Shown here piece after piece: positions 44,553 to 60,216 of a DNA stretch of 64,000 nucleotides. The number at the start of each line of letters is the position of its first letter. The stretch's first letter is position 1. Both the position numbers and the translations under genes were made by a program. Below the pieces are notes generated by a model that was not told the DNA's origin, made no database searches, and saw only the letters and a program-made list of their open reading frames with translations. Source of the DNA: an uncultured Gammaproteobacteria bacterium (GTDB lineage Bacteria; Patescibacteriota; Microgenomatia; Levybacterales; UBA12049); contig CAZEJU010000002.1 in NCBI GenBank assembly GCA_964512695.1, forward strand, positions 76,233-140,232. Direction: 5' to 3'.

Positions 44553-44680
44553 AATTTTTGTTATTATATCAGGTTAGTATCTGTGTCTTGAGCTGTAACA
44601 ACCTACATGCTAAAATACGGAGACAAAATATTCCCCTGTAGTCCGCCAGCTGGCGGACAGGAAGCTGTATAGGAGAGAAT

Positions 44681-44934
44681 ATGTGGACTGTATACGTCTT
44701 ATACAATCAGGCAAATCAAAAGATATATATTGGCGTAAGCGCTAATATCGAACAAAGATTAAAGGAGCATAATGTAAAAATAGCAAATCATTATACGATA
44801 CGGCTAAATTTTAAGGGATTTGGGTGTTAATATATAAAGAAGAAATTAATAATAAAAAAGACGCTTTGGTACGAGAAAAGCAACTTAAAAGTTTTAGAGG
44901 TAGAGAATTTATTAAAAAATACATTCCCCTGTAG
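44681..44934 (+). pseudogene. GIY-YIG (UPF0213) nuclease gene interrupted by a +1/-1 frameshift near 44825-44832, ending inside the tRNA
   Basis: Frame A reads 'MWTVYVLYNQANQKIYIGVSANIEQRLKEHN...'. Frame B reads '...IYKEEINNKKDALVREKQLKSFRGREFIKKYIPL*'. Together they reconstitute a typical about 85-aa GIY-YIG protein. Confidence 0.5.
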
Positions 44935-44996
44935 CTCAACGGTAGAGCAGGAAGCTGTTAACTTCAAGGTTCGTGGTTCGAATCCACGCGGGGGAG
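44925..44996 (+). tRNA. tRNA-Asn (anticodon GTT)
   Basis: Hand-folded cloverleaf. Acceptor TCCCCTG/CGGGGGA, D-arm GCTC-AACGGTA-GAGC, anticodon loop CTGTTAA, T-arm CGTGG-TTCGAAT-CCACG. The 5' end resembles E. coli tRNA-Asn. Confidence 0.75.
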
Positions 44997-46565
44997 CAAG
45001 TTCGTTCTTAATATAACTGCCTGTTGGTCAATTAACTCCTGGACAAGCGGAGAATAGACCGTATTAGCAATCTTTTTGTCGTGTACCTCCAGCTTCTCAA
45101 AGAAAAACCGGAGATAACTTTTTTTCAGAAAATCAGGTGCTTCTTTGTACGCTTTCGGAATATCACGGGTCAGTGCGAGTACTTCTTCCAATAAGTCGAA
45201 ATCAAATTTCCTGCTACTTTCAAGTTTTGCTAGTTCCTTATCTACATTCTTAATTTTTTCCTCAACCTCATCACGCAGTCGGCGATTAGCTTCTCTATTG
45301 AACAAAGCATTTGAAAACACGTCCTCCTCAAGAATTCTTCTCCTCCTTATCAGTCCCGCTCTTTCATTCAAATATCCTTTTCGGACTTTTGACTCCTCCT
45401 TATCTCTGTCATTCAGATACCTTCTCACTTTCGCAGTAAGTGCATCAGTGAAACCTTTTGTGAACTTAATACCTCTGAAATGACTGGCAACTTTGTTTTC
45501 AAGGTCGTCTGCCTCCACATAAGGAGCTTTGCAGGGCTTTCTTTTCTGACAATGATAGTAATGTACTGTATCCCTTTTTTTCGAATGAGCAGGGTGCGGT
45601 TCGGCGGTATATCTGAGACCGCAGTCAGCACAGAAAATAATGCCTCTTAACAGATAGTCATACTTTCTTTCTCTTATGGCGAATCCTCTGTGTTTGGCCA
45701 GTATCACCTGACACAAGTCAAAAAGCGGTTTGGATATCAAGGGTTCATGATTACCCATTCGTTCTCTGTTGTTTGTCTCCTGTTTCATCAGACCGTAATA
45801 GAAAGGATTAGTAAGAATCTGCTGAATAGTGCTGTGAGCTAAGGGTTTTCCGTTGACTGTCGTCAGTCCTTTGGTATACATGAACAGCCCGAGCCTTTTT
45901 ACTGAGTACTTGCCTGTAGCGAATCTTTTGAATACTTCTTTCATGAGTGGTCCGTGAATCGGGTCAACTTCAATGGGTAAGGGTTTTCTCGGAAGGGAAT
46001 CTATGTATTGCTGTCTCTCTGGCGTGCGTTTCTTACCCGCGATTCTACCTTCCTTGTCGATATTCAGATATCCGTAAGTTACACCAGTCGGATACCAGCC
46101 GTTATTCCATCTGGTATCTAAGCCTCGCTTTGTCTTTCTGCCTAAGTCCCGTGAGTAGAATTCATTAATTCCCGCCATGAAAGTGTCCAACAATCTTCCT
46201 TCCGGGCTTTCATCCAACATCGGCTGAACAACGGAAATTAGCCTTGTTCCTGCTTTTTTGAGCTGTTCCTTGATAAGAAAATGGTCTGTGGCATTTCTGG
46301 CGAAACGGTCAGTGTTGTAGACAATTATGGCTCCTACTTTCCTGGTGTCAATTTGTTCAAGCATTTTCAGAAACTCGGGTCGATTGGAGACTGTGGCACT
46401 TTGTCCTTCGTCTTTGAATGTTTCCAATATTTCATACTCTAATTCGTGAGCTTTCTTGGTACATATATCTGTTTGAGCTTCAATGGAGTACCCTTCCTTG
46501 GCTTGTTCCTCCGTACTTACTCTGCAGTAGATGAAACATGTTTTCTGGTCGTTATTCATATTCAT
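44964..46565 (-). mobile_element. Large serine recombinase (integrase) whose last about 11 codons are encoded by the tRNA-Asn 3' half
   Basis: N-terminal resolvase domain 'CFIYCRVSTEEQAKEGYSIEAQ', a recombinase domain, a Cys-rich zinc ribbon 'CADCGLRY...HYYHCQKRKPC', and a coiled-coil. Codon usage is distinct. Confidence 0.75.
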
Positions 46566-46734
46566 AGTCCTATAGCATTATTATAAGCAATTCTGAAAAG
46601 CATTGAAACAAAGTTAAGATAATATACCGTTATTAGAAGATATGGGAAGGTGACTATATAGTTACTGTTAATAGAGTTACTATATAAGTTACATACCGTT
46701 ATTCCTTTGTTGAATATTTCTGTATTACTCATAA

Positions 46735-47082
46735 TCAGAACGGGATATCGTCAGGATTAACTTCTTCGTTGCTTTCTGATTTCTCCTTGTATGCCTCGAA
46801 GATTTTCTTCTCGATAGTTTTCCATAATTCCTCTTCGAAGTAGACTACCTTTGAATAGTTACCTTTCTTACTCCTGTAACAGGGCGGCTCAATCCATATC
46901 GGTTCTCCGAAGTCTTCATGAGGATAATCAGATTTTTTGACGGTGCAACCGCGGATAATTTGACCCGGAAGCTGTATTTCTGCCTGTGCTAACAGCCAGG
47001 CTTTCCTATAGAGTTTGACTTTGACAGTCACATTTTCGATGATGTACTTTCTGACCTGTTCTTCCGTAATATTCATGTTCAT
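46735..47082 (-). CDS. Island hypothetical protein, 115 aa
   Basis: Intact ORF with island-type composition. Confidence 0.35.
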   Translation of the reverse strand: MNMNITEEQVRKYIIENVTVKVKLYRKAWLLAQAEIQLPGQIIRGCTVKKSDYPHEDFGEPIWIEPPCYRSKKGNYSKVVYFEEELWKTIEKKIFEAYKEKSESNEEVNPDDIPF

Positions 47083-47100
47083 AATTAGGTTTGTTGTATT

Positions 47101-47352
47101 TCAATAAGACATTTTTTCTTTTTCCGACTCCGTAAATATGAAATTCTTCAATGTTCTTATCGCTTCAACAAAAGAGAGAGCGTCAACGGTAACTTTGCCG
47201 AGCCAATACTGAGAAACCATTTTTTCGCAGTCTGTATTATTTCTGAAGATGAACCAATAGCTTCTGCCTGATTTGTTGAGTCCTATGAACTCTTTTTTTT
47301 TGGCGTAGAGCATCGAGCTTATATAGAGGTCTTTTGTTAAGTAGTTTTCCAT
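47101..47352 (-). CDS. Island small hypothetical protein, 83 aa
   Basis: Intact ORF. Confidence 0.3.
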   Translation of the reverse strand: MENYLTKDLYISSMLYAKKKEFIGLNKSGRSYWFIFRNNTDCEKMVSQYWLGKVTVDALSFVEAIRTLKNFIFTESEKEKMSY

Positions 47353-47577
47353 AGTTTTTTCATTTTCATCTGTTTATTCTTCTTGTACTGGATAGTTGCT
47401 AGAGCTAAATCAAACCATTGTTCAACAGCTAGCCGGAAATAGTCGTCATTCTTGGGAGTCTGCAGCAATTGGCTTTTCTTAATTTTCATTAAGTCAATTG
47501 TCGGAAAATTAGAGGATTATTCGGAGGGCCCAGCTGGAGTAATTCGATTTGTCCCTCTGTATGAAGTAGAAGTATTC

Positions 47578-48549
47578 TTATTCGCTATCGGGATTTTTAT
47601 TATATCTTTTGAGAAGTTGCTTATATCTGTTGACTGATTTTTTGACTGCGGGTGTTGCTATATCGACATGACTGATTATTCTTTCAGCCTCTTCCTTTTG
47701 TTTCCTTAAATCCTGGTTGAGTGGAACTTTTCTGAGTCTCTTCGAATCCGACATTGCCTTCTTGTACTTATCAAGACCTTCTTCACCCGCAGCTATTAAT
47801 TTGTATCCCGTACCAGATTTATTTTGCCAGTATCTTTTTCTGTCACGAAAGATTTCATCTTTCGTAGATGAGGGAATAGTTCTGTCTACGCCCCAACCGC
47901 TATTTTGAGCCGGAAGTATTTCTTTCCTGTAGGCATTGACTACATCGTCCAAAGTTGCCTCCAGAGGTATGGACATATTGAAGTGTATGAAAAGCGTCGG
48001 CACTCCGTTCTTGTTTTTTTCAAACTCCTGTGAAACTTGTACTCCCGATAAGTCATCAACTGTCACTTTGTTGCATATAATTGCATGAGCCAGAACTCGT
48101 TCCATTCTTTCCGAAGTATGAAGTTGTCGTCTGAGATTGGTAAGCGTCTTTCCGAACTCGTCAGTTATTTTCATTTCCCTTTTTCTCTTTCCGAATGCAT
48201 AAGATATAAGTCTGTTATACAAACCGCTTTCCTTTTGTTGTACATGTTGCTTTGAGTCGGGTATGTCATACCAAATATCCTGAGAAAGAATATCGTATAA
48301 GCCTCCGAAGCGAAGAGAAAACCATAATTTTAATAAGTCAGTTGTATCAGTCTTGGATGCTAAAAAAGACTCAAAATATGATTTGCCTTCTTTGGAATGA
48401 GGACAGTTTCTCGAGGTATCAATATTAAATTGGTATCGTATCTTAAGTAGTATTTTCTGGAAGTCTTCTCTATCAACAGTCAGGGCAATTGCTGCGAACT
48501 TTCTTCTGTTCTTCTCATTTTCTTCAATATCAATATCTACCTTGTTCAT
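47578..48549 (-). CDS. Island hypothetical protein, 323 aa
   Basis: Intact ORF with no motif recognised. Confidence 0.4.
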   Translation of the reverse strand: MNKVDIDIEENEKNRRKFAAIALTVDREDFQKILLKIRYQFNIDTSRNCPHSKEGKSYFESFLASKTDTTDLLKLWFSLRFGGLYDILSQDIWYDIPDSKQHVQQKESGLYNRLISYAFGKRKREMKITDEFGKTLTNLRRQLHTSERMERVLAHAIICNKVTVDDLSGVQVSQEFEKNKNGVPTLFIHFNMSIPLEATLDDVVNAYRKEILPAQNSGWGVDRTIPSSTKDEIFRDRKRYWQNKSGTGYKLIAAGEEGLDKYKKAMSDSKRLRKVPLNQDLRKQKEEAERIISHVDIATPAVKKSVNRYKQLLKRYNKNPDSE

Positions 48550-48580
48550 ACATAATGTTCATATTCAGGCAGAGAATAAG

Positions 48581-49141
48581 TTATTCTATTTGACGGTTTT
48601 CGTCGACTGATTCTAATCTTTCGAATTCTTTGAGCATAATAGCAAGTTCTTCATAAGTCATGCGTTGTAAGGCTCGTCCGAATTGAGTGTTCATTACTGA
48701 AGATATCGACATCGCTGTAACTGTATTGACTGTGTTATTTATAAGTGGTCTCTGGTTGACTACTCCCACTGCTTCACGCTCTTCCTGGAGACCAATTTCT
48801 ACCAATCTTGTTGCCTGCGGTTCGGAAACATCCTTCGTATCTCGTTTTCTCATCGCTTCCAAACCCCTTGCCTGAAGGAAGCGGGCAACTTTGGCTTGTC
48901 TTTTCCTTACTTCAACCTCGCTATCGCTTACCCATTTGACCATTTTGTCTTCAGTTTCCTGTTCAAGCAGCCTTCGATATTCATCTCTTTCAGCTCTCCA
49001 TCCGGTCGTGATTCTGGTGACATTTCCGTTAATCTTGATTTCCTTGCTTTCAAGAAAGGCATTAACGGATTCAATGGTACCGTATTTGTATTCCTGTTTG
49101 AGTGTATTCCAGTCAAATTTAATCGGTGCGTCCATACGCAC
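48581..49141 (-). CDS. Island hypothetical protein, 186 aa, highly charged and coiled-coil-like
   Basis: Intact ORF. Confidence 0.35.
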   Translation of the reverse strand: MRMDAPIKFDWNTLKQEYKYGTIESVNAFLESKEIKINGNVTRITTGWRAERDEYRRLLEQETEDKMVKWVSDSEVEVRKRQAKVARFLQARGLEAMRKRDTKDVSEPQATRLVEIGLQEEREAVGVVNQRPLINNTVNTVTAMSISSVMNTQFGRALQRMTYEELAIMLKEFERLESVDENRQIE

Positions 49142-49207
49142 TCACATTATACCTGAAACAGACCAATAAGAGGCAATGAATAGACGTTTCTTACATGCGT
49201 ACAATCT

Positions 49208-50014
49208 TCAATAATTTTGAGTCCATTTGGTCAGCAGACCGTTCTTGAAGTAGAGGAATAACTTTTGTCCGTTACTTCCGTAGTATGACCAACTTTCAGT
49301 TTCATCAGGAACTAAGAAACCAGATTCTGTTGTCTTTGACTTGTCGTCCGGAATACCCAAAGAATAATTGGCTTCAAATTGATTCATGTTCTGCCAATAG
49401 CGTTGATTGACAATATCTTCTATATGGTCTGCGTATCCTGCGAAAGTCAGGGCCGTTATAGCTTTGACACAATCCTGGGATGTGAGATTCTCTCCCTGTT
49501 TTGTTGTTTCTGGTTTCAGTTCCGCTTTTCCGTCTGCTCCGTCACTTAATTCAAGAACCGTATAGAGTCTTGTAGTGTTTCTGCGTTCATTGCAATAAGC
49601 CTCAGCCATGTCACCTGCCTTTTTGACATTAGCAGCCGTTTCTTTGACGGTTGTAGCGTCTTGCATGGCATTTTTTGATTCAGACTCCTGCTTCGTTTGT
49701 TCTGTCTGAGCTATGGGAGTGGGAGAAGCTGTCTGATTAGAAATTTTCGTACCGACGGTCTTGGCGGAAGGTGGCAGTGTTTCAAAACTGAATATCAATA
49801 CTGCGACAAACAATATAACTCTTATCAAGCCAGGGACTTTGAATGACACACGCTTGTTTATGATTTTCCAGAAAGGAGGGAAGATAATCAGGCCGGAAAA
49901 AATCATCAATAAGGCAGACTTCGGGTAGGCAAAAGTCAGAAGCAGGCCAACAATAAGAATAAGTATCGAAAGCGGCCAAATTATAAGTTTCAGTATTCGT
50001 TCCATACCGTACAT
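49208..50014 (-). CDS. Island membrane protein (two N-terminal TMs plus an extracytoplasmic domain)
   Basis: 'IIWPLSILILIVGLLLTF' and 'LMIFSGLIIFPPF'. Confidence 0.4.
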   Translation of the reverse strand: MYGMERILKLIIWPLSILILIVGLLLTFAYPKSALLMIFSGLIIFPPFWKIINKRVSFKVPGLIRVILFVAVLIFSFETLPPSAKTVGTKISNQTASPTPIAQTEQTKQESESKNAMQDATTVKETAANVKKAGDMAEAYCNERRNTTRLYTVLELSDGADGKAELKPETTKQGENLTSQDCVKAITALTFAGYADHIEDIVNQRYWQNMNQFEANYSLGIPDDKSKTTESGFLVPDETESWSYYGSNGQKLFLYFKNGLLTKWTQNY

Positions 50015-50111
50015 ACATGCGTTATTTTCAGCCTCAAAGCTGTCTGAATCTTAACACATTGTGACTGTGAGTCGCAAGACTCCCAGTCACATTCTTAGTA
50101 CATTTTGGAGT

Positions 50112-50366
50112 ATGGGACGAACTAATAAGTCATTTCCCGTAGACCAAAAAGACAAGGCGGTGTTACAGAAAAAGTTCGGTAAGAGACTCGCTGAAATAAG
50201 AACTGAGAAAGGGATCACTCAGGAAGGGTTGTCGTTTGAAACAGGGGTCGACAGGACGTATATTAGCTATATTGAGCGGGGTGAGCGAAATCCATCACTC
50301 TTCATGCTTTGGAGACTTTCAAAAGCTCTTAAGATCAGGATTAACGAGCTGACGGATTTTCAGTAA
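50112..50366 (+). CDS. XRE-family helix-turn-helix regulator, a possible controller protein
   Basis: 'LAEIRTEKGITQEGLSFETGVDRTYISYIERGERNPSL'. Confidence 0.65.
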   Translation: MGRTNKSFPVDQKDKAVLQKKFGKRLAEIRTEKGITQEGLSFETGVDRTYISYIERGERNPSLFMLWRLSKALKIRINELTDFQ

Positions 50367-50448
50367 CATTCTTCCTTAATTTCATCTTTGTCAGAAGTGT
50401 GTCCTTCTTACGGTATAATTGAGACCGGTAAGGAGTGGAGTTACTCGC

Positions 50449-50868
50449 ATGGATGTTCATACAAAAGAACAAAGAAGCTATAACATGTCACGGGTGAAGT
50501 CGAAAAATACTAAGCCTGAATTATTAATGTTTTTGTTACTCGAAGAGGCCGGATATAAGTTTGAAAAACATTATCCGATTACGGGTAAGCCCGATATCGC
50601 ATTTCCCGAACACAAGGTTGCCGTGTTCATTGATGGAGAATTCTGGCATGGTAAGGATTACAAGCAGATAAGAGATTCCATTCCGCCTTTTTGGGTCAAA
50701 AAAATAGGAGAAAATCTTAAACGGGACGGGAGAAATATGAGAAAGCTAAGAAGTGAAGGCTGGCGTATTCTGCACTTTTGGGATAAGAAAGTGGTCAAAT
50801 ATCCTGAGAGGTCACTCCGAAGAATTACGCGGTTTCTTGAGCGTGTAAGAATCTCTGACGGAAAGTAG
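50449..50868 (+). CDS. vsr: Very-short-patch repair endonuclease
   Basis: 'MDVHTKEQRSYNMSRVKSKNTKPE' and 'VAVFIDGEFWHG'. Confidence 0.8.
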   Translation: MDVHTKEQRSYNMSRVKSKNTKPELLMFLLLEEAGYKFEKHYPITGKPDIAFPEHKVAVFIDGEFWHGKDYKQIRDSIPPFWVKKIGENLKRDGRNMRKLRSEGWRILHFWDKKVVKYPERSLRRITRFLERVRISDGK

Positions 50869-51955
50869 GAACAAGTTTCTTTGTCGTTTTCAATTCATTC
50901 ATCGATTTAAGAAGAGCATCGGCGGCTCTTTTTGCAAGCAAAGGCGGAACTGCGTTTCCTATCTGTTCGGCAATCTGGCCAAAATTGCCTATGAATTTGA
51001 AATCATCAGGAAAAGTCTGAAGTCGTGCAGCTTCACGAAGAGATATTGCTCTGTTTTGTTCCGGGTGTCCGAATCTTCCCTTTGAAATCATCGCACAACC
51101 TCCTGTCATTGTAGGTGATGGTTGGTCCCACCTCATTCTTCCGTATACGTCTTTGTGTCCCTTTGTATTTCGGTGACATTCGAGGACTAACTCATCAGGC
51201 CATGAAGTTCTGTCTCCACCATCGTGAGGGGTCAACATGAGTCTTTTCAGATTGATTTCGGCGAGACTGGCGGAAGCATGCATGGCGTCATCCGGGTGTT
51301 TCTCGCCAGCCTGAATTTTGGGCAAGTCGTTGATGGCTTCTCTTACCGTATTCCAAGCTGGTAAATCATCAGAAGTTGCCGGGTCAATGTTGGTCTTAGA
51401 AGGAAAAGATAGCCTGATATCCGAATTATTAGTGCCCATAAGGACGAGCCTCTTTCTTCTCTGAGGAACGCCGTAATCGGCCGTATTCACAACGTCGTAG
51501 ACTGTCTGATACCCCAGCTCATGAAGTTTCTGCAGTATTTGAAGAAAGAGAGGTTTCCCGATTCCCGTCGCAAGCCCCGGAACGTTTTCAAGAACGAAAG
51601 CAAGCGGCTTAATTTCTTCAACAATTCTCAGGAATTCATATATCAGTTTGTTTCTCGGGTCTGTTAATCTTTGTGAGTTTCTCCTGGCACTCGAAAACCC
51701 CTGACAGGGAGGACAAGCGATGAGAACCACCTGTTTTCCGTTTTTGAATCCTCCCGCTTTCAACAGCTCCTTACCTGACAGATAAGAGATGTCTGACGGG
51801 AATACGGCACAGTCGGGAAAGTTTGCCTTGAATGATTCGGATGCGTTTTTGTCGATATCAACGGCAACTTTGATATCAAAACCAGCTTGCTGAAAGCCTA
51901 ACGCCGAACCTCCGCAACCGGAAAAAAGGTCAATTACACCCAAGTTTCCCTTCAT
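50825..51955 (-). CDS. dcm: DNA (cytosine-5)-methyltransferase
   Basis: Motif I 'DLFSGCGGSALGF', motif IV 'PPCQGFS', motif VI 'ENV'. It is convergent with vsr and overlaps it by 44 nt. Confidence 0.85.
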   Translation of the reverse strand: MKGNLGVIDLFSGCGGSALGFQQAGFDIKVAVDIDKNASESFKANFPDCAVFPSDISYLSGKELLKAGGFKNGKQVVLIACPPCQGFSSARRNSQRLTDPRNKLIYEFLRIVEEIKPLAFVLENVPGLATGIGKPLFLQILQKLHELGYQTVYDVVNTADYGVPQRRKRLVLMGTNNSDIRLSFPSKTNIDPATSDDLPAWNTVREAINDLPKIQAGEKHPDDAMHASASLAEINLKRLMLTPHDGGDRTSWPDELVLECHRNTKGHKDVYGRMRWDQPSPTMTGGCAMISKGRFGHPEQNRAISLREAARLQTFPDDFKFIGNFGQIAEQIGNAVPPLLAKRAADALLKSMNELKTTKKLVPTFRQRFLHAQETA

Positions 51956-52112
51956 GATAATAATATATCATTTTTCGCCCGGTCGCTGTCGGGGTTTTTT
52001 GAAGAGTGTATATACTCATTCATTCCGTGTTATATATTTTATAAGTGTTGACTACAGAATGAAAATATAGTATCCTTTGTTCCAGCAAATCGGTCTAAAT
52101 ACTGAAATTAAT

Positions 52113-52340
52113 ATGAAAACAGGCGAAACAAAAGGTGCGGCTTTCAAAAGGCTCGCTTCCAACAGAACGAATAACGCAATCAGGAACATCAAACTTCTGG
52201 GTAATTTGTCCAACAAACATAATTACTCCTACTCCGAAGAGGACTTCAAACGAATTTTCAACAGCGTCGAACATGAACTTAAACTGGCAAAATCGAAATT
52301 TCTTATCTCGCTGAGTAAGAGTAAGAAATTCAAACTCTGA
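52113..52340 (+). CDS. Small basic hypothetical protein, first gene of the candidate operon
   Basis: ATG at 52113. The track's 52077 start is a TTG. Confidence 0.35.
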   Translation: MKTGETKGAAFKRLASNRTNNAIRNIKLLGNLSNKHNYSYSEEDFKRIFNSVEHELKLAKSKFLISLSKSKKFKL

Positions 52341-52363
52341 AAAGTGGATAATTAATTATTAAA

Positions 52364-53014
52364 ATGAAAATGAAAAAAGATATAACATCACTGAAGCTCA
52401 CAAGACCACAGAAGATTCTCGTAACACTGTATCAACTTTCCGACGGTACTAATAAACAGGTCAGGTTCGAAGATATAGCAGTAGGCGTTTATAAGAACTT
52501 CACTTCCGATTTTCAGCTAAGAGGTTATCCTCAATACCCTGATACGGGTGATATTGTACATAAACCGCTGTATAGCGAATTGAAAAAAGGCGGATATGTA
52601 TTATCCGGCAATAAGTACTTTTCCCTTACTCCGAAAGGAATTGCGTACGCCAAAAGACTGCTCCGCGTTTCAGAGAAAGAAACCGAACCGGGTAAAACCG
52701 CTTCAGTGAAACTTACGGCAGACCAGCAGAAAGAGCTTGACAGATTGAAATCTTCAAAGGCTGTTGAGTTGTTTCTTAACGGCAAGAAAGAGGATATTCT
52801 TGATATAGACTTCTATTCCTATCTGGAAGTTACAGTGAGGACGGGTAAGAATGACTTTCTGGGAAGACTTCGCACGGTAGAAGACGCCATTAATGCTACA
52901 AAAAACAGAAGTGACACGCTGTACAAAAAGCTGAGAGAATGTCACGAGTATCTTCTTGAAAGATTCAGAGGAAACATTGATTTCGTAAGGAACAGCAAAG
53001 GAGGTAAGAGGTAA
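52364..53014 (+). CDS. Putative winged-helix DNA-binding protein, 216 aa
   Basis: 'RPQKILVTLYQLSDGTNKQVRFEDIAV...GGYVLSGNKYFSLTPKGIAYAKRL' is PadR/MarR-like. Its stop overlaps the next start. Confidence 0.4.
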   Translation: MKMKKDITSLKLTRPQKILVTLYQLSDGTNKQVRFEDIAVGVYKNFTSDFQLRGYPQYPDTGDIVHKPLYSELKKGGYVLSGNKYFSLTPKGIAYAKRLLRVSEKETEPGKTASVKLTADQQKELDRLKSSKAVELFLNGKKEDILDIDFYSYLEVTVRTGKNDFLGRLRTVEDAINATKNRSDTLYKKLRECHEYLLERFRGNIDFVRNSKGGKR

Positions 53015-54858
53015 TGGCAACGACAATACAAATGAAAATTAAGGAAGAGCAGAATGTCTATCATGACAACATTCTTGATATTTGGGGTAATGACTTCAAT
53101 TTCAGTCATGAAAAGGGTTTGGCAGAATGGCTTAAGAATTCAGTAGACGCATACCGCAGAGTCGGGGCTGCCGACAAAGACCAATACATTATCTTCCGTT
53201 TCACTGACGGTACTCAGACGACACCTCCAGTTATTGAGTGCATTGATTTCGTGGGAATGGAATTGGTTGATATTGAGAAGGCTTTCAAATGGTGGGGTGA
53301 CCCTGATGCGGCAAAAAGAGGTCAAAAAATTAAGGTATTCGGCGGTCATGGAAACGGCGGAAAGTTCTATATGCGTCAGATGTTTCTGCAATCACATTTT
53401 GTGACATACAGGCAGGGAAAAATTAACGTCTTCGGATTCAATGAAAACAGGAAGTATGGTTTTGCAGAAGGATATAAGGACAAAAAAGTTACACTTGATG
53501 AAGCCCTGAAGATAGCCGGGATAGAAAGGTCAACTATTCCCAATGCGGTTTTGCGTCAACTTGAACACGGAGAGACTGGGTTTACTGTTGTCAAAGGAAT
53601 CAGACCGAAAAAAGTCGTCGGTAGGAGTCTTCCCGTATTCAGAATATGTGACAAGCTGAAGTATCATCCTCAGGCAAGAAGTCCTCTTAAGTTCAGTAAT
53701 GTATCCGTTATCCATAACGGCAAGATAATTGCGAACGGCCTGAGAATGGAAGATATCGAACCGCTTGAAGGTTTTGAAGGACCGTTCTTTTTTGAGATTC
53801 CCGACGAAATAGATTCCATAGCGGACGGAGAAACAGGAAAGAAAGTGAATATGTATGACAAGAGGTATGGGAAAGGCAGTCTGGTATTAAAAACTTCATC
53901 TCTTCCTTTCGGTCGCGGAGGTAGAAAACCTGAGCTGAATTGTATTGATATTGTCGGTGAAATCGGTGTTATTGCTTCATATAACATGCAACAGATAGGC
54001 TTTCTCCGATACTTCCCTCAGGCTCAATATATATATGGAGAGTGCTCATGTCCCATTCTTGAAGACCCGGAATATGATTGTGTTCAGAATGACAGAGAAA
54101 GACTTGTCGATAATGAAAAAACAGCAGCTCTCCTTCAATGGATTGCAAGAAGAATAGATGAAGTGGCAGGCAAGATTGCCGATAATGAAGCGAAGGCGGA
54201 AGAAGCTGAGAATATAAGAGCTACAGACGAGTTTAATCAGATTCTCAATAAGTGGAAGAATCAGTTTATGTCGAAGCTGTTTGCTGAGGTCTTGGGCGGT
54301 ACGGGAAAAGGAGATTCTACCGGTGGTCAGGGTGACGAAGGCTCAGGTGGCGGCACGAAGAAAGAATCAAAAGACAAGGACGGATTAGGCTCAGGAGCCG
54401 GTAAGGGTGGCGGAGAAGGAGATGAGAAGAAGAAAGGTTCAAGAGCACCCCTTGTACTTTTGTCCGGACAGGAAGACCCGGAATTTCCCGGTATGCCTGT
54501 AACTTTTTCTGACAGACATTTCGCTGTGGAACAAAGACAGCAGGATGTAGACAGAGGAATATATTGGATTAATCTTGAAAAGCCGATGGCGAAGAAGATA
54601 ATCGATAAGTACGGAGTTGACTCTCCGAGGTGGAGAAACTATTTATTCCAGAGATATGTTGACATATTTACAAAGGAAACATTGTATCGTCTGGCAAAGA
54701 AGGAAGGAGGCTCTCTTACGCCCGAACAGGCTGACTACGAAATAATGCGTGTGTCATCTCTTGTATATGATAAGGCCACAATCGACCTTGAAGATTTTCT
54801 TCTGAGCGAGAGATACAATTCAGGCAAGAATAATGAAAATGAATCCGAACAATCATGA
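53014..54858 (+). CDS. GHKL/MORC-like ATPase with a Gly/Lys/Asp-rich linker
   Basis: Bergerat N-box 'AEWLKNSVDA' (ExxxNxxDA) and G2-like 'FGGHGNGGKFY'. Low-complexity stretch 'GGTGKGDSTGGQGDEGSGGGTKKESKDKDGLGSGAGKGGGEGD'. Confidence 0.55.
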   Translation: MATTIQMKIKEEQNVYHDNILDIWGNDFNFSHEKGLAEWLKNSVDAYRRVGAADKDQYIIFRFTDGTQTTPPVIECIDFVGMELVDIEKAFKWWGDPDAAKRGQKIKVFGGHGNGGKFYMRQMFLQSHFVTYRQGKINVFGFNENRKYGFAEGYKDKKVTLDEALKIAGIERSTIPNAVLRQLEHGETGFTVVKGIRPKKVVGRSLPVFRICDKLKYHPQARSPLKFSNVSVIHNGKIIANGLRMEDIEPLEGFEGPFFFEIPDEIDSIADGETGKKVNMYDKRYGKGSLVLKTSSLPFGRGGRKPELNCIDIVGEIGVIASYNMQQIGFLRYFPQAQYIYGECSCPILEDPEYDCVQNDRERLVDNEKTAALLQWIARRIDEVAGKIADNEAKAEEAENIRATDEFNQILNKWKNQFMSKLFAEVLGGTGKGDSTGGQGDEGSGGGTKKESKDKDGLGSGAGKGGGEGDEKKKGSRAPLVLLSGQEDPEFPGMPVTFSDRHFAVEQRQQDVDRGIYWINLEKPMAKKIIDKYGVDSPRWRNYLFQRYVDIFTKETLYRLAKKEGGSLTPEQADYEIMRVSSLVYDKATIDLEDFLLSERYNSGKNNENESEQS

Positions 54859-56266
54859 CAATTCCATCCTGCCCGCACAGTTATCACTGCATAACACAAC
54901 TTCGAATACCGGAGCTGTTAATTATTTGTCAGAGAATGAAATATCCCTCCCTCCTTCTCTGAGTAATGACGACTCCATTGAAGTATTGGGTCTACCAATA
55001 AGACTGGAAAACGCTCTCAAAAATTCAGGAAATATCACGACAGTCGGACAGTTAGTTAATACCGCTGACGAAAAGTTGCTGAAGTTGAGGAATCTCGGTC
55101 ATAAGTCCGTCAACTATCTTATGCAGGTGAAATTGAAGATAGATGAAAAGTTCAGTACTCTCCAAAACAGAACACCCACAGAAATAACTGAGCAAAAACA
55201 AGAGGAAAAAATTATTCCTGTCAATCAACTCCTCAATTTGTTGCTCGATAGATGCGGTAGTGAAAGAGTCAAAGAAATAGTCAAAAGACGATACGGCCTT
55301 ATGGACGGAGAAAGACAAACTCTCGAAGAAATCGGTGAGCATTACGGAGTAACTAGAGAAAGAATCAGACAGATTCAAGTTAAGGCATTGAAGAGCATGC
55401 GACATCCGATTACTACAGCCAGGAAACCGATTACGGATATTATGGAAACCATTCTGTTTCGGAATGGCGGAATAATTTCTGCTGAAGAAGCGGACACCAT
55501 AATTCCGGAAGCTTTCAGTGATACGGGTAACGACGGGAGTTCTGTGCTTGATTTACTTTGTGAATTGGGCTGGATTCAGAGCTGCAGAATCGGAGATATA
55601 GCAATATATTCACCGAAATTTGACGGTGTTTCTCTGTGCAAGTTGTCGGAAAAAATCACATTTCTGATTAAGAAACAGGATTTAGGGATTGACATTCCTT
55701 CAATATTCAAAGGTGTCAGTATGTTCAGAAGAATCAGAGACCAACGTTTCAATCCTCAGGACTTCGTTCTCAGATATTGCAGAATCGACCCTCGGATTGA
55801 AGAAATCGGACTTACATCAGCACAACCCGAAGTTTTTTTCAGGTACTATACAGTCGGTCATTTCGCTAAGAAGGGTTGGGTGGTTCTTATGACCAGAGTG
55901 TTGGAACAGGAACAAATGCCGTTACATTTCACTGAAATTGCAGATAAGGTAAATGACCTTCTGGGTAATTCTGAGAGGAGACTGGATGTAAGAAGAGCAC
56001 ATTCGATATTGATTGACGATGAAGCATTCGCTCACAGTGGTATTAACGGGACGTACGGTCTTACATCGTGGGGTTTGAGAAAAGATTCAACTGTCGAACT
56101 GGCAGAAGAGTGTCTGAGAAAAGCGGGGTTCCCGTTACATTGGAAGCAAATATTCAATTATGTGAGCAGGTATAAGAATACAAAACCGGGAAACATTACC
56201 AGTATTCTTGAAAATCATCGCAGATTCAAAAGAGTTGAATCAGGAATTTATTGGCTTAATGACTAG
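54833..56266 (+). CDS. Multi-HTH protein made of RNA-polymerase-subunit-like modules: alpha-CTD-like, sigma70 region-4-like, and two HARE-HTH-like domains
   Basis: 'IRLENALKNSGNITTVGQLVNTADEKLLKLRNLGHKSVNYL' resembles the RpoA CTD. '[41 protein letters not shown]' resembles sigma r4.2. 'PLHFTEIADKV...GTYGLTSW' and 'PLHWKQIFNYV...GIYWL' resemble HARE-HTH. It overlaps the upstream gene by 26 nt. Confidence 0.6.
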   Translation: MKMNPNNHDNSILPAQLSLHNTTSNTGAVNYLSENEISLPPSLSNDDSIEVLGLPIRLENALKNSGNITTVGQLVNTADEKLLKLRNLGHKSVNYLMQVKLKIDEKFSTLQNRTPTEITEQKQEEKIIPVNQLLNLLLDRCGSERVKEIVKRRYGLMDGERQTLEEIGEHYGVTRERIRQIQVKALKSMRHPITTARKPITDIMETILFRNGGIISAEEADTIIPEAFSDTGNDGSSVLDLLCELGWIQSCRIGDIAIYSPKFDGVSLCKLSEKITFLIKKQDLGIDIPSIFKGVSMFRRIRDQRFNPQDFVLRYCRIDPRIEEIGLTSAQPEVFFRYYTVGHFAKKGWVVLMTRVLEQEQMPLHFTEIADKVNDLLGNSERRLDVRRAHSILIDDEAFAHSGINGTYGLTSWGLRKDSTVELAEECLRKAGFPLHWKQIFNYVSRYKNTKPGNITSILENHRRFKRVESGIYWLND

Positions 56267-56274
56267 TGATATAT

Positions 56275-58680
56275 ATGGACATACAGAAAATTAAAATTAA
56301 GAGCGATTATAAATTAGCGGATATCGTTCATGATATTGAAAAAGGAATCTTGAGGATTCCTCAATTCCAGAGAGAGTTTGTGTGGGATAAGCCCCGGGTC
56401 ATCAAACTTCTGGAAAGTATCTATCTTGAATACCCGATTGGGTCTTTTTTCTTCTGGGACGCTCCGCGAAAGTATTACGACTTCTATCGTGATATCGCTG
56501 AGTTGGGTCTTCCCAAGCCCGATAGGTACGAAAAAATTGTTTTCATTCTCGACGGTCAACAGAGGCTTACTTCCCTCTATGTTACGGTCAAAGGGTTGAC
56601 GCTCTACAGTAGGGATTACAAAAAGATTTGTTTTGACCTGGATGAAAAAATATTTGTTGACAGAATACCTGACAATCAGAGATTCGTTTCTGTTTCAGAT
56701 TTACTATCGAATGACCGATTTGATGTCTATGAACGACTTACGGTTGAGCGAAAGAAATCATTCAACGAATGCTATCAGCGATTCAATAATTATCCTTTCT
56801 CAGCGATTGATGTCCGGGACAAGGAACTTGATGAGGTCTGTGACATCTTTGAGCGTATCAACCAGGGAGGACAGAGACTCAATTTGTTTGACCTCATTTC
56901 AGCAAGCACTTGGACTCCCGAGTTTGACTTAAGGTTTGCGGTCAAGAAAGAGAATGACAATCTGAAGACAAAGGGCTTCGGAGATATTGATAATGAAGTC
57001 TTTCTTCAAACACTTTCCCTTATCGCCAAGGGTTCATGTACGAGACCTGTCCAATTACAATTAAGGGCCGAAGACGTTAATAAGTTCTGGCAGGAGACAG
57101 TCAATTCAATGTCTCTGGCAATTGATTATCTGAAGAACAACTTAGGGGTGGTCAATTCGGTGTTCATTCCGTACAGAAGTATGATAGCTGTTGTTGCTTA
57201 CCTGTTCTCTGTCAACAAAGGCAGGAGTCTGAATCACGAGCAGTCAGAGCTATTGTCCCAATGGTTCTGGCAGACTACGTTTTCAGAGCGGTACGGAGCT
57301 TCAATTCTGACGTTAATGACCGAAGACAAAAAATTAATGGACAAAATAGCTTCAGGAACTGATATCAGCGTTAAGTATCCGTTTTCGTTGGATATTGATT
57401 CACTTATTCAGGTGAGAATGTATCGAAAGTCGGCTGTTAAAAACGGCATTCTGTGCCTGTTGGCTAAGAGAAACCCCAGACATTTCAAAAACAATGTCCC
57501 TCTTCTGCTCAAAGACGGATATTATTCAGATTTCAACAATTCAGAGAAACATCATATTTTTCCTAAGGCGATTGTTCAGAAGAAGTTCCCTATGGTCATG
57601 GTACATTCACTCCCAAACTTCTGTTTCATTCCTGCGGAACTTAATAAGGAGATATCAGACAAACAGCCGAGCAAGTATTTTGAAGAGTATTTGAGTATAA
57701 ACCCCGACTTTGAAGATACTCTCAGAACCCACCTGATTAAGTACGATGATTCAATCAGACAGAACGATTTCATGTCTTTTCTGGCTTCAAGAGCGGCGAT
57801 GATTCTTGAGGAAATAACGAGAGCTACCGGTTCAAAAATCAGTCGGGTAGTAGCAGATAACGTTAACAAGGCGATAGATGATACTGAGAAGAAACTGCGT
57901 GACTTCATAGATAAGCAATTATCCTTAAATAATACTGATTATTGGAAAACATCAGTACCGAGCGATGTTGTCGGAATAATGCGTCAGAGAGTCAATCAAT
58001 ATCTGTCCAAAGACCCTTCAAAGATAATCAGCGATTTCAGTTCAAGGGACTTACTCGACTTCTGTGACATTATGGATTATTCAAAAATGGTCATCTCAAA
58101 CTGGAACATATTTTCAACTTTTTTCAGGTCGAAGATTGAAACTGAGAAAAGATTTTTGAATCTGAAAGAGTTCAGAAACGCAGTCAAACATACAAGAGGA
58201 GAGATTGTTCCTTTCATTCAGAAAGAAGGAGAAGCGGCTCTGGAATGGCTATCAATCATTCTTGGTGAAGTCAGAAAAAAGGGAGAGGAAAGAGCTTCAG
58301 TTACAGAGACCGACGAACAAACCATTAACAGGGTTGAATCGGAGTTTGTCAAACATATGGTCAAAGGAATACCTCAATGGATTGAAAACGATTACCCTGA
58401 AGGAACCAGTTCAATAGTGAAGTTGGTGGGCGGTACGGGTTCTGACCATTACATAAAAACAAACAGCAGAACAGCTATCTGGTATTATTTCGCTAAACAA
58501 TGGGTGTTCATGGAGTTGAAGGATGCGACTGTTGAAGAAGCTAAATTGTTGAGGGAAAGGATTTCAAAGCCCGAGTCAATATTAGAAAAGCAAAACGGTG
58601 CCGTCAGATTTCATCTGATGAATGATAATGATTTGAAGGTGGTAACGGACATTATAAGAATCAGAGCTAATAACGGTTGA
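56275..58680 (+). CDS. GmrSD-family-like nuclease: DUF262 (ParB-like) plus DUF1524 (His-Me finger) plus a C-terminal extension with a HEPN-like RNxxxH motif
   Basis: 'IPQFQREFVWD' and 'LDGQQRLTSLYV' are DUF262 motifs. 'SEKHHIFPKAIV' is DUF1524. 'EFRNAVKHTRGE' is an Rx4H motif. ATG at 56275; the track start 56266 is a GTG. Confidence 0.65.
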   Translation: MDIQKIKIKSDYKLADIVHDIEKGILRIPQFQREFVWDKPRVIKLLESIYLEYPIGSFFFWDAPRKYYDFYRDIAELGLPKPDRYEKIVFILDGQQRLTSLYVTVKGLTLYSRDYKKICFDLDEKIFVDRIPDNQRFVSVSDLLSNDRFDVYERLTVERKKSFNECYQRFNNYPFSAIDVRDKELDEVCDIFERINQGGQRLNLFDLISASTWTPEFDLRFAVKKENDNLKTKGFGDIDNEVFLQTLSLIAKGSCTRPVQLQLRAEDVNKFWQETVNSMSLAIDYLKNNLGVVNSVFIPYRSMIAVVAYLFSVNKGRSLNHEQSELLSQWFWQTTFSERYGASILTLMTEDKKLMDKIASGTDISVKYPFSLDIDSLIQVRMYRKSAVKNGILCLLAKRNPRHFKNNVPLLLKDGYYSDFNNSEKHHIFPKAIVQKKFPMVMVHSLPNFCFIPAELNKEISDKQPSKYFEEYLSINPDFEDTLRTHLIKYDDSIRQNDFMSFLASRAAMILEEITRATGSKISRVVADNVNKAIDDTEKKLRDFIDKQLSLNNTDYWKTSVPSDVVGIMRQRVNQYLSKDPSKIISDFSSRDLLDFCDIMDYSKMVISNWNIFSTFFRSKIETEKRFLNLKEFRNAVKHTRGEIVPFIQKEGEAALEWLSIILGEVRKKGEERASVTETDEQTINRVESEFVKHMVKGIPQWIENDYPEGTSSIVKLVGGTGSDHYIKTNSRTAIWYYFAKQWVFMELKDATVEEAKLLRERISKPESILEKQNGAVRFHLMNDNDLKVVTDIIRIRANNG

Positions 58681-58882
58681 AATTACATAAGGTCAAGAGT
58701 GGAGTGTTTTTTAACTGATAGAAGGATATCTCCTGCAAAAATAACAATTAAGACGAGAACAATAAATATACTCAATTTCTTCATATTTACACTGCTATTA
58801 TATTCCTTTTTTATTCGTGTTTACTCGAGAATTCATTGTGTGAAATTGAAAATATTGGTACATTATTATAAGTAATATACTT

Positions 58883-59842
58883 ATGAGTCTTATAACGAAT
58901 ATTTTACTGTACTTAATATCATTTGCAGCAATTTGGTGGGGTGCAGGTCTGATTATTCAATCAGTCGACAAGATTGCCCACAGACTAAAACTTTCTTCTT
59001 TTGCCATTTCATTTTTTGTATTGGGACTACTTACATCTATTCCGGAAACAGCAGTCAGTATCCAAGCTGTATCAGAGCATAATCCTGAAATCTTTGTCGG
59101 TACTTTGTTGGGAGGAGTGTTAGTTATTTTCTGCTTTGTAATTCCTATTTTAGCCATTTTAGGCAAGGGAATTAAAATAAATCATGATTTAGACAAGAAA
59201 ACGTTACTTCTGGCCTTGGCTGTTATGGCAACACCAAGTTTCTTAGTCATAGACCATAGAGTAACTAATCTTGAGGGATTGATAATGCTGGTCGTTTACT
59301 CCGTTCTATTTTATGTAATCCAGAAGAGGCACGGGATATTTGACAGCGAAAAAGCGGAGGTTTTACAGATTAAGGCATATTCATTTCTGGATTTACTGAA
59401 AGTCATCCTTGGTATTGCTGTAGTCTTCGTATCAAGTAGTTATATTGTTGACCAGACAATCATCTTTTCTCAGATATTAAATATTTCGACCTTTTACATA
59501 AGTATTCTGGCACTAAGTTTAGGAACAAATTTGCCTGAGTTATCTCTTGCCGTTAGGGCAATATTGGCAGGCAAGAAAGATATTGCCTTTGGTGACTATC
59601 TGGGTTCAGCTTCAGCAAACACCTTACTTTTTGGCTTTTTTACACTGATTTACGATGGTGAAGTCTTAACAACCAACAGTTTTCTAATAACATTCGGATT
59701 TATAGTGTTTGGATTAGCATTATTTTATTATTTCTCTCAATCTAAAAAGGATATTTCGATTAAGGAGGGTATCGGGCTTCTAGTAGTCTATGTCTTATTC
59801 GTGCTTTATGAACTTAGCAAAGCAACAACATTCCTGAAATAA
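58883..59842 (+). CDS. CaCA-family cation/Ca2+ exchanger membrane protein
   Basis: Two alpha-repeats: 'GLLTSIPETAVSI' and 'LGTNLPELSLAVRA'. Confidence 0.6.
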   Translation: MSLITNILLYLISFAAIWWGAGLIIQSVDKIAHRLKLSSFAISFFVLGLLTSIPETAVSIQAVSEHNPEIFVGTLLGGVLVIFCFVIPILAILGKGIKINHDLDKKTLLLALAVMATPSFLVIDHRVTNLEGLIMLVVYSVLFYVIQKRHGIFDSEKAEVLQIKAYSFLDLLKVILGIAVVFVSSSYIVDQTIIFSQILNISTFYISILALSLGTNLPELSLAVRAILAGKKDIAFGDYLGSASANTLLFGFFTLIYDGEVLTTNSFLITFGFIVFGLALFYYFSQSKKDISIKEGIGLLVVYVLFVLYELSKATTFLK

Positions 59843-60216
59843 GAATCGAAAGATAGTTTCGGGTCTAAGTATGCTTTCTTCCTCTAATCCATTCATTAAA
59901 ACTTAACTCTGATAATAGGTAGAATCTATAATAAAATCCGGCAGCCATTCTGTCTTTCAACTTTGTTTTCTTCACGAACTTCTCGAATGATATCTTCTTA
60001 AGCTGAGACATAAGATAAGTGTACCTTAGGGAGGTTTCCTACAGTACCGATTTCTGTTATTATGTCGATAAGTTTCTTGATGGAATCTTGTATATTAAGG
60101 TGTGAGGGACGGAGCATGATCTTCTTAACTTTAATATTCTAACAAACCGAGTTGGTTAGAGCCTCATGTTGATCCGTGTCACATCATTTTTACTACGAAA
60201 GGTCTATAAATACATT

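Follow-up and report, generated by a model that had tools for sequence, protein, structure and literature searches.

A putative integrative island that encodes a large serine recombinase and adjoins the 3' end of tRNA-Asn in a patescibacterial genome

The DNA discussed here, referred to as the window, is a 64,000-nt stretch of contig CAZEJU010000002.1 (assembly GCA_964512695.1, positions 76,233 to 140,232) from an uncultured member of the Patescibacteriota, order Levybacterales, in the Candidate Phyla Radiation (CPR). Positions 44998-60115 of the window are most probably an integrative island that is moved by its own large serine recombinase (LSR), here termed LSR1, and whose insertion site is the extreme 3' terminus of the tRNA-Asn gene of the host. 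The anatomy of the segment, the family-wide association of related recombinases with tRNA-Asn, the architecture of the two junctions and a difference between samples at one of them are all directly observed, and from these we infer strand exchange by LSR1 and a circular intermediate. An initial annotation of this DNA had proposed an integrated island at tRNA-Asn mobilised by an LSR. That proposal is now supported by an orthologous element in another host (locus L095), by the 25 of 36 related loci found at tRNA-Asn, by a conserved block of host genes and by the difference that contig L011 displays at the junction. The main features of the element are as follows.

44925-44997, plus strand: tRNA-Asn(GTT), found by ARAGORN and Rfam (RF00005, 63.6 bits); B arm of the putative attachment site, intact after integration
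44993-44997: putative attL core GGAGC (GCTCC on the LSR strand), spanning the end of the acceptor stem, the discriminator and one further base
44998-45031, minus strand: putative X1 (P'-type) arm, inside the LSR1 coding sequence
44964-46565, minus strand: LSR1, 533 aa, intact (PF00239, PF07508, PF13408; PHROG 95 integrase)
59998-60115, minus strand: open frame across the Y1 arm, LRPSHLNIQDS...VSA and stop, which forms the last 39 codons of a second recombinase, LSR2, in strain B (contig L011)
60090-60115, plus strand: putative attR with the Y1 (P-type) arm, GTATATTAAG-N11-GGAGC, an inverted copy of the X1 motif plus the shared core
60116-60165, plus strand: flank U', ATGATCTTCTTAAC.., a possible host B' arm or a relic of the LSR-end arm of an older element

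The recombinase and its tRNA target

LSR1 contains a Resolvase domain (PF00239, E=1e-30, residues 11-156), a Recombinase domain (PF07508, E=2e-13) and a zinc ribbon (Zn_ribbon_recom, PF13408, E=7e-11), and the PHROG 95 integrase family matches residues 2-503 (E=6e-83). In an alignment of 31 sequences, residues R15, V16 and S17 are invariant, R15 and S17 being catalytic. Since all three domains and both catalytic residues are present in a full-length open reading frame (ORF), LSR1 is intact, which rules out a fragment and agrees with the initial annotation of a 533-aa large serine recombinase opposite the tRNA. At the level of sequence it fits the definition of a large serine recombinase. Enzymes of this family have a coiled-coil motif within the zinc ribbon that governs attP/attB synapsis, and in LSR1 residues of about 380-460 look heptad-rich by eye. 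It is at most 27% identical to the LSRs of the phage collection INPHARED, and a scan of viral contigs with the LSR1 protein returned a single irrelevant match at 25% identity. The last 10 codons and the stop of LSR1 (..LLPRVDSNHEP) are the antisense of the tRNA, an overlap of 34 nt that begins in the 3' strand of the anticodon stem and reaches the acceptor end; a read-through of the tRNA 3' half by about 11 final codons had been noted before.

The tRNA-Asn(GTT) is the sole tRNA that ARAGORN finds in the window, and its identification at the island edge, also made in the initial annotation, holds with both ARAGORN and Rfam. The gene order dnaG-rpoD-tRNA-Asn is kept next to LSRs in other CPR genomes as well, at no fewer than 12 loci, in which rpoD is present on the 5' side of the tRNA, along with dnaG in most, as in the window. 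The RpoD proteins of organisms that share this context are 56-85% identical. Because the block is conserved, the tRNA is taken to be a host gene and the recombinase-bearing DNA to be the variable part. The neighbouring gene for a 446-aa protein (p446) has relatives, in a scan of the genome collection, only in metagenome-assembled genomes (MAGs) that are labelled Levyibacteriota, Roizmanbacteria or Woesebacteria or are mislabelled, with at most 55% identity. These affiliations place the window in a CPR/Patescibacteria genome of Microgenomates type. The order dnaG-rpoD-p446 is kept in one p446 relative only, and a tRNA at the corresponding position was found in none of these distant relatives.

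The family to which LSR1 belongs is large, with 508 homologs at E<1e-20 that are mostly from CPR MAGs. Many of them end in peptides such as ..LLPRVDSNHEP, ..LDSNQQP, ..DSNLQP and ..PRPGLEPGT, which are encoded by a T arm and commonly follow the pattern ..DSN(H/Q/L)(E/Q)P. As judged from their sequence, such C-terminal peptides can only arise from the T arm of a tRNA read backwards. A metagenome scan with the LSR alignment gave 80 loci, and the surroundings of the LSR end were classified in the 36 closest loci that include the LSR C-terminus.

18 of 36: LSR stop overlapping an intact tRNA-Asn(GTT) on the opposite strand, the overlap being 28-133 nt (28-63 nt in all but one locus)
7 of 36: LSR abutting the 3' exon of a tRNA-Asn whose anticodon is interrupted by a group I intron (confirmed with Rfam RF00028 in six)
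2 of 36: contig end within a tRNA-like 3' end with a T arm
5 of 36: LSR end joined to non-tRNA DNA
4 of 36: other (tRNA-Phe, truncated tRNA remnant, unassigned)

The 3' end of tRNA-Asn is the site of 25 of these 36 loci when the 18 intact and 7 intron-split genes are taken together. More distant LSRs overlap tRNA-Phe, -Arg, -Glu, -Met, -Gln, -Ala and -Ile. The closest counterpart to the island is locus L095, from an ENA sample, where an orthologous element lies at the tRNA-Asn of another host. Its LSR falls in the same 90%-identity protein cluster, it shares LSR-proximal genes with the island at 82% nucleotide identity, and its 34-nt LSR-end arm is identical.

A group I intron (Rfam RF00028, 53-107 bits) divides tRNA-Asn in many related CPR genomes. 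It sits in the anticodon, the 3' exon begins ..TAAC, and such genes are not called by ARAGORN. LSR elements are still found at the 3' ends of these split genes. Introns were located at the following positions.

L019, 2195-2428: group I intron
L021, 4316-4514: group I intron
L041, 12246-12469: group I intron
L042, 1036-1247: group I intron
L044, 1776-1979: group I intron
L053, 1024-1421: group I intron
L096, about 1048-1200: group I intron

Two further observations concern the surroundings of these tRNA genes. At window positions 44632-44934, a gene for a GIY-YIG nuclease is preceded by a partial copy of the 5' part of tRNA-Asn and followed by the real tRNA. It begins with an ATG at 44681, has a frameshift near 44815-44830 (the joined frames match PF01541, E=2e-16), and its stop codon coincides with tRNA bases 8-10. 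The partial copy (44632-44669) reads TCCCCTGTAG, then a palindrome in place of the D arm, then CAGGAAGCTGT. Logan contig L093, from a third sample, stops within this copy at 44639, and a comparable 21-nt duplication of the tRNA 5' end, without a gene, is present in L026. The segment has the look of a small mobile cassette, one that duplicates the 5' end of the tRNA. Separately, L021 carries a LOOT RNA (Rfam RF03000, 79.8 bits) at 122-233, about 2.5 kb upstream of its LSR.

Junctions, crossover and integration

The distal boundary is provided by a comparison between samples. Logan contig L011, from a different sample (SRR22388145), equals window positions 46266-60115 with 1 mismatch in 13,850 nt (99.99%), and past 60115/60116 the two are unrelated. 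Contig L012 (SRR8893623, the window's own sample type) confirms the window version of this junction. Just inside it, the LSR strand reads GCTCC-GTCCCTCACAC-CTTAATATAC, with the motif 11 nt after the core and inverted relative to GTTATATTAAG, the motif at the LSR end. The latter occupies 45007-45017 (read as CTTAATATAAC on the plus strand), encodes a conserved V-I-L-R, and is found at a constant 9-nt distance from GCTCC in many LSR loci. The common element TATATTAAG has a single copy on each strand of the 64 kb, at 45007 on the minus strand and 60091 on the plus strand. The longer pattern GCTC-N11-14-TAATATA has one match in the window (60091-60115) against 0.14 expected, and that match lies at the breakpoint between the two samples. 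Across 96 fetched loci it occurs only in L011 and L012 (the same site), L027, L033, L038 and L094, and always exactly at an LSR 3' junction. A strict inverted-repeat scan (12/16 matches) missed even the true site, and an 11-mer or anchored pattern was used in its place; a generic repeat finder run over 44.6-60.4 kb returned chance-level pairs only. From these sequence comparisons attR is placed at 60115/60116, which gives the island a span of 44998-60115 and a length of 15,118 bp. The distal end given in the initial annotation, at about 58.7 kb or beyond 64 kb with an island of roughly 13.7 kb, was wrong and is replaced by the junction at 60115/60116 and a length of 15.1 kb. With the end placed there, a Na+/Ca2+ exchanger gene belongs to the island.

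The DNA to the right of the junction is less clear in origin. The flank at 60116-60165 (ATGATCTTCTTAACTTTAATATTC) is about 79% similar to the X1 arm by eye, with a 1-nt gap, and may be either the true B' half-site or the relic of an older resident. A homolog of p166 (window 61201-61701) lies 6 kb from the p446 homolog in the relative L003, so the host backbone has resumed by 61.2 kb at the latest. Two small ORFs that follow the flank, p94 and p113, match no family.

The point of strand exchange can be narrowed by comparing LSR ends in different settings. The window, L095 and L094 (a JGI sample) share an identical 34-nt stretch, TT(G/A)ACCAACAGGCAGTTATATTAAGAACGAACTT-GCTC, and diverge immediately past GCTC. 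Beyond it the window continues into its own tRNA-Asn and L095 into a tRNA-Asn with a different T stem, while L094, which carries a truncated LSR1-like gene, continues into non-tRNA DNA, a Y arm reading GAGGATCGTAAC-GTTAATATAAT. Identity up to GCTC followed by divergence narrows the predicted crossover to the bases GCTC of the LSR strand, or to their edge; the tRNA strand reads them as GAGC. Because the same GAGC is present on the island, integration leaves the tRNA sequence as it was. The exchange at the last bases of the tRNA, in GCTC/GGAGC, also explains why there is no tRNA-derived direct repeat, only about 5 nt being common to attL and attR. Indeed, k-mers of 10-14 nt from the tRNA 3' half recur nowhere else in the window on either strand, so that the earlier statement that the window holds no direct repeat of the tRNA 3' end stands for repeats of 10 nt or more. 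In 20 related loci a displaced tRNA 3' fragment was found in none of the tRNA-Asn group, and repeats of 15-21 nt, about 6 kb away, were found only in L083 and L091.

These last two loci belong to a distant clade at tRNA-Glu, in which the tRNA 3' end recurs in exact copies some 6-6.7 kb upstream of the LSR. L083 (4222-4241, 4402-4422 and 10381-10455) has copies of 20 and 21 nt, and L091 (4728-4742) has one of 15 nt. To judge from these copies, the clade seems to rely on a longer common core and to produce repeats of the classical kind. A crossover in the anticodon loop had also been suspected, based on breaks in Logan contigs and on a loss of tRNA similarity in several relatives at ..GTTA/C. 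It was rejected, as the "breaks" in the relatives are group I introns and the contig ends are most simply read as tRNA k-mers common to different organisms.

Joining the two island ends gives a reconstructed attP, ..GTATATTAAGGTGTGAGGGACGGAGCAAGTTCGTTCTTAATATAAC.., in which the half-sites GTTATATTAAG and CTTAATATAC lie 25 nt apart with the centre of symmetry in GGAGC. The corresponding reconstructed attB is ..GGTTCGAATCCACGCGGGGGAGCATGATCTTCTTAAC.., and the k-mers diagnostic of the junctions are GTGTGAGGGACGGAGCAAGTTCGTTCTTAATATAAC for the attP circle and GAATCCACGCGGGGGAGCATGATCTTCTTAAC for the empty attB. Short inverted half-sites around a GGAGC core, without long direct repeats, are what is expected of serine-integrase attachment sites, at which the crossover covers 2 bp. 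In the proposed mechanism, the circular form of the island would carry attP inside the 3' end of the LSR1 gene, with the half-sites GTTATATTAAG and CTTAATATA(A)C in inverted orientation around a central GCTC, about 25 nt from each other. LSR1 would pair attP with attB, whose conserved half would be the acceptor and T arm of tRNA-Asn, and would exchange strands within GCTC/GGAGC, rebuilding the tRNA and leaving about 5 nt common to attL and attR. Integration would also swap the C-terminus of LSR1, replacing a 37-aa tail encoded by the far arm with the 9 residues PRVDSNHEP encoded by the antisense of the tRNA. The protein would end ..ILRTNLL-RPSHLNIQDS...VSA in the excised circle and ..ILRTNLL-PRVDSNHEP when integrated. 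Successive elements would then pile up at the same tRNA.

The arm-encoded tail (about 37-40 aa, DRNVNITSQFVRIF.VFEDFRFI.QLREEM.KV..), whose coding sequence crosses the junction, is conserved in L094 (10699-10827), P0017 and P0128, and related forms are found in L027 (11486-11647) and L033 (4262-4375). This tail of about 40 aa is common to two LSR clades and is far more conserved than the recombinases themselves. Its conservation at the protein level across clades suggests that the tail may be translated and functional.

Stacked elements and competing explanations

Beyond the junction, contig L011 encodes on its minus strand (13733-14413) the C-terminal 187 residues of LSR2, which is absent from the window; the remainder of that element extends past the end of L011. 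The order in strain B is tRNA, island 1 and LSR2 element. Homologs of LSR2 have Recombinase and zinc-ribbon domains, and their similarity to LSR2 ends exactly at the junction (..RPIWL). Those that are adjacent to tRNAs continue with ..PGLDSNQEP or ..PREDSNLEP, and one relative (L096) lies at an intron-split tRNA-Asn. A profile comparison of LSR2 with the LSR1 family is weak (E=0.08), and by this measure the two are separate LSR clades. The open frame at 59998-60115 on the minus strand was considered as a deletion scar of LSR2 and rejected; since homology to LSR2 stops exactly at the junction, this frame is the island's own far arm. Other loci contain comparable arrays. In L094 (9916-20827), an rve transposase gene is followed, 3.2 kb downstream and past a gene for a P-type ATPase, by a truncated LSR1-like gene; a second element comes next, with DUF6602, a LexA-like gene, a type II restriction-modification system (Eco57I/methylase/Alw26I type), DUF5659 and, at its end, a 555-aa LSR of its own. 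In L038, 10.9 kb separate the LSR junction from a Y arm upstream of it, and this arm directly follows the C-terminus of another LSR (..QVILKSVLGLL; 1-607). Stacking at tRNA-Asn thus appears to be common. Canonical serine integrases do not recombine attP with attL, however, and the formation of arrays is not accounted for by the proposed mechanism.

Several other points weigh against an island that is moved by LSR1. The element TATATTAAG alone is not rare, with 1.2 copies expected per window, and the Y arm of the window lacks a ..CGTAA(C/G) stretch that is common to four other Y arms. Neither the reconstructed attP nor the X arm has a match in IMG/VR. A search for a circular form yielded no contig with terminal overlaps and no attP junction. 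No empty attB was found among the searchable collections, in which the closest genomes are too distant (at most 55% at p446), and exact-protein look-ups of the flanking genes led to occupied or broken contigs only. Serine integrases recombine attP with attB in one direction and need a recombination directionality factor for excision; such a factor was likewise not recognised, unless it is one of the small ORFs p115 and p83. Lastly, the final 1.4 kb of the proposed island is host-like in composition, which leads to the first alternative.

The 12 genes from LSR1 to 58680 have a G+C content at third codon positions (GC3) of 0.36-0.50, and with the exchanger included the island averages 0.42, whereas the window's 42 other ORFs average 0.30 (Mann-Whitney p=4e-7). 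The overall GC is 0.41 in 44998-58700 and 0.38 upstream. The distinct codon composition remarked on in the initial annotation is therefore real, but past 58700 values drop to those of the host (58701-60115: GC 0.346; exchanger GC3 0.33). It is possible, though unlikely, that the island ends at about 58.7 kb, in which case the DNA to 60115 with the exchanger would be host and the break at 60116 would be an unrelated insertion site, used by the LSR2 element in strain B. The compositional drop speaks for such an end, as does the absence of an exchanger homolog from every other LSR locus. The intergenic region at 58681-58882, however, contains neither a GCTC/GAGC core nor an inverted motif resembling an attachment site, and the sole Y-arm pattern match of the window is the one at 60091-60115. 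The Y half-site there also fits the X motif of LSR1 (9/10) better than that of LSR2 (8/13, by eye). Moreover, relatives of LSR2 target tRNA-Asn themselves, in place of sites of this sort, and the presence of LSR2 is best explained by tandem stacking.

A second alternative, which we consider very unlikely, is that the segment is a fixed and decaying remnant, with a domesticated or inactive recombinase left beside the tRNA together with cargo acquired long ago. This would agree with the failure to detect either a circular form or an empty site, with the lack of recognised genes for excision, replication, packaging or transfer, and with the truncated LSRs and insertion-sequence insertions in related arrays such as L094. 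A full-length LSR with three domains and the catalytic Ser and Arg is difficult to reconcile with decay, and two near-identical populations that differ by a whole element at the attachment core point to recent site-specific recombination. The orthologous element at the tRNA-Asn of another host (L095) argues in the same direction. Finally, the idea that tRNA-Asn is carried by the mobile element, like phage-borne tRNAs, draws on the constant pairing and overlap of LSR and tRNA and on the presence of a single tRNA in the 64-kb window, but it is scarcely credible given the conserved rpoD-dnaG host context 5' of the tRNA, the identical LSR-end arms joined to different tRNA bodies (window and L095) or to non-tRNA DNA (L094), and the several tRNA-Asn genes with group I introns, which are typical of host genes.

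Cargo and comparison with known elements

An island that spans 44998-60115 carries the following genes in addition to LSR1.

46735-47082, minus strand: p115, no Pfam, PHROG or NCBIfam family
47101-47352, minus strand: p83, weak DUF5659 match
47578-48549, minus strand: p323, no family
48581-49141, minus strand: p186, no family
49208-50014, minus strand: p268, membrane protein, no assigned family
50061-50366, plus strand: XRE/C-protein-like regulator (Pfam HTH_3; PADLOC Control_protein, E=3e-17)
50419-50868, plus strand: Vsr very-short-patch endonuclease (Pfam Vsr, E=3e-25; PADLOC Vsr)
50825-51955, minus strand: Dcm C5-cytosine methyltransferase (DNA_methylase, E=2e-71; PADLOC MTase_II)
52077-58680, plus strand: candidate defence operon p87-p216-p614-p477-p804, four or five genes (Pfam, PADLOC, NCBIfam)
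58883-59842, plus strand: Na+/Ca2+ exchanger family membrane protein (Pfam Na_Ca_ex, E=8e-39)

The cargo as first listed (an XRE regulator, Vsr and Dcm, a candidate operon and ORFs of no known function) is borne out by Pfam and PADLOC. The LSR-proximal part is shared with L095, where a part of p268 together with p186, p323, p115 and the LSR is syntenic at 82% nucleotide identity, and homologs of p115 and p83 lie upstream of the LSR in L032 and L038. For p268 there are two weak PHROG matches at E>1e-3, one to a family of unknown function and one to a Sie-like family. The XRE-Vsr pair is oriented towards Dcm. A type II restriction enzyme to partner the Dcm, Vsr and C-protein was not recognised in the island, and the p216-p804 operon may supply the nuclease for this module. 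Homologs of XRE, Dcm and Vsr recur upstream of LSRs at other loci, with cargo that varies between loci.

Within the candidate operon, p477 has three recognisable parts, sigma-70 region 4, alpha-CTD and HARE-HTH, and its similarity to MzaA and PglW is confined to their sigma-region-4 part. The product p804 contains GmrSD_N/DUF262 and has a weak HEPN match, and its best PADLOC matches are the candidates PDC-M55C and HEC-05. Family searches gave no match for p614 or p216, and p614 was also without a hidden Markov model or PDB sequence match; its N-terminal region shows GHKL-ATPase-like motifs (ExxxNSxDA, DxxGM, GxxGxG), seen by eye and unconfirmed. The operon as a whole matched no known system in PADLOC 2.0, NCBIfam or PDB sequence searches. 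The exchanger gene is co-linear with the island in L011, and no homolog of it is present at other LSR loci.

Genes for mobility other than the recombinase were looked for as well. Capsid, portal, terminase, tail and lysis genes were not found (10 island proteins against PHROGs, with Pfam and NCBIfam), and PHROG matches are limited to the integrase, a sigma-factor-like stretch and the two weak matches of p268. No Pfam or NCBIfam domain of a relaxase, coupling protein or type IV secretion system is present in island ORFs of at least 80 aa, although five ORFs have no family and a divergent relaxase is conceivable. Replication genes were not detected with Pfam, PHROG or NCBIfam. The element is best called a cryptic integrative defence island, the role of its cargo in defence being presumed. 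Elsewhere in the window, about 480 bp at 21100-21580 reach 57% GC in a genome of 38% GC and are bounded by GC-rich hairpins. This segment holds an ORF at 21144-21560 on the minus strand (138 aa, or about 120 aa from the first ATG; GC3 0.62) with no Pfam or Rfam match, and is possibly a small foreign insertion.

The closest functional analogue of the island appears to be the staphylococcal cassette chromosome (SCC, including SCCmec). These cassettes are driven by LSRs (CcrAB or CcrC), are neither replicative nor conjugative, and insert at the 3' end of rlmH/orfX in Firmicutes without inactivating it. Like SCC, the island sits at the extreme 3' end of a conserved gene, leaves the target intact, carries accessory cargo and occurs in tandem or composite stacks. 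It differs in its tRNA target, its CPR host, the presence of one LSR per element, and a cargo of defence and methylation genes where SCC carries resistance genes.

Tyrosine integrases depend on a longer common core, about 15-40 bp, and after integration a displaced piece of the tRNA 3' end remains as a direct repeat. Like classical tRNA-linked islands and tycheposons, the element sits at a tRNA 3' end and leaves the tRNA intact, accretes in tandem and carries cargo for defence or adaptation. Unlike tyrosine-integrase islands, its only recombinase is of the serine type, and it has no tRNA-derived repeat, GGAGC alone being shared; both the enzyme family and the chemistry of strand exchange differ. 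An LSR element beside a tRNA may have a precedent in Prochlorococcus, where 27 of 937 site-specific elements have an LSR and no tyrosine recombinase and most islands adjoin tRNA genes (Hackl et al., bioRxiv 10.1101/2020.12.28.424599).

Compared with serine-integrase elements such as Bxb1, phiC31, A118/LI, SPbeta SprA and TP901-1, LSR1 has the same arrangement of Resolvase, Recombinase and zinc ribbon, and the island likewise has short attachment sites with imperfect dyad symmetry, a minimal core and no long repeats. Common cores of serine integrases can be as short as 3 bp, and mycobacteriophage serine integrases do not target tRNA genes (Hatfull 2022, PMC9262239). Characterised LSRs insert within protein-coding genes, whereas LSR1 lies at a tRNA 3' terminus, and tRNA targets are not mentioned in the main text of an LSR survey (Durrant et al. 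2022, PMC10083194). In contrast to serine-integrase prophages, the putative attP lies inside the integrase ORF, phage genes are absent, and identity to the LSRs of the phage collection is 27% or less. The nearest analogy to the tail swap is the integration-dependent immunity of the phages BPs and Brujita, in which attP lies in coding sequence, integration alters the C-terminus of a protein and attB overlaps a tRNA gene; BPs uses a tyrosine integrase, and integration removes a degradation tag from its repressor (Hatfull 2022, PMC9262239). In the island, attP would instead lie in the serine integrase's own ORF, with a hypothetical effect. A limited literature search found no description of a CPR LSR clade, a crossover at a tRNA terminus or an intragenic attP of this kind, and a survey that counts islands in CPR genomes does not mention recombinases, integrases or tRNA genes (PMC12455944).

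A broader proposal, offered tentatively and with considerable doubt, is that a large clade of serine integrases found across the CPR has moved from targets in protein genes to the last bases of tRNA genes, namely tRNA-Asn here and other tRNAs in sister groups, with attP placed in its own reading frame. The tail swap would then act as a sensor of the integration state that governs integrase stability or directionality, and repeated capture would build arrays of defence islands in very small genomes. An intragenic attP that swaps the integrase C-terminus does provide a simple hypothesis for the control of directionality. The reconstructed sites are testable attP/attB pairs for divergent LSRs, with a conserved tRNA arm as one half of attB, and may serve as orthogonal integration tools. 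The finding also corrects a working rule, as islands linked to tRNAs are usually ascribed to tyrosine integrases and expected to be bounded by repeats of a tRNA fragment, whereas here a serine clade and about 5 shared bases are involved; island finders that rely on repeats will miss such elements or misplace their bounds. For the CPR/Patescibacteria, the island represents a concrete vehicle for the horizontal transfer of defence and methylation genes.

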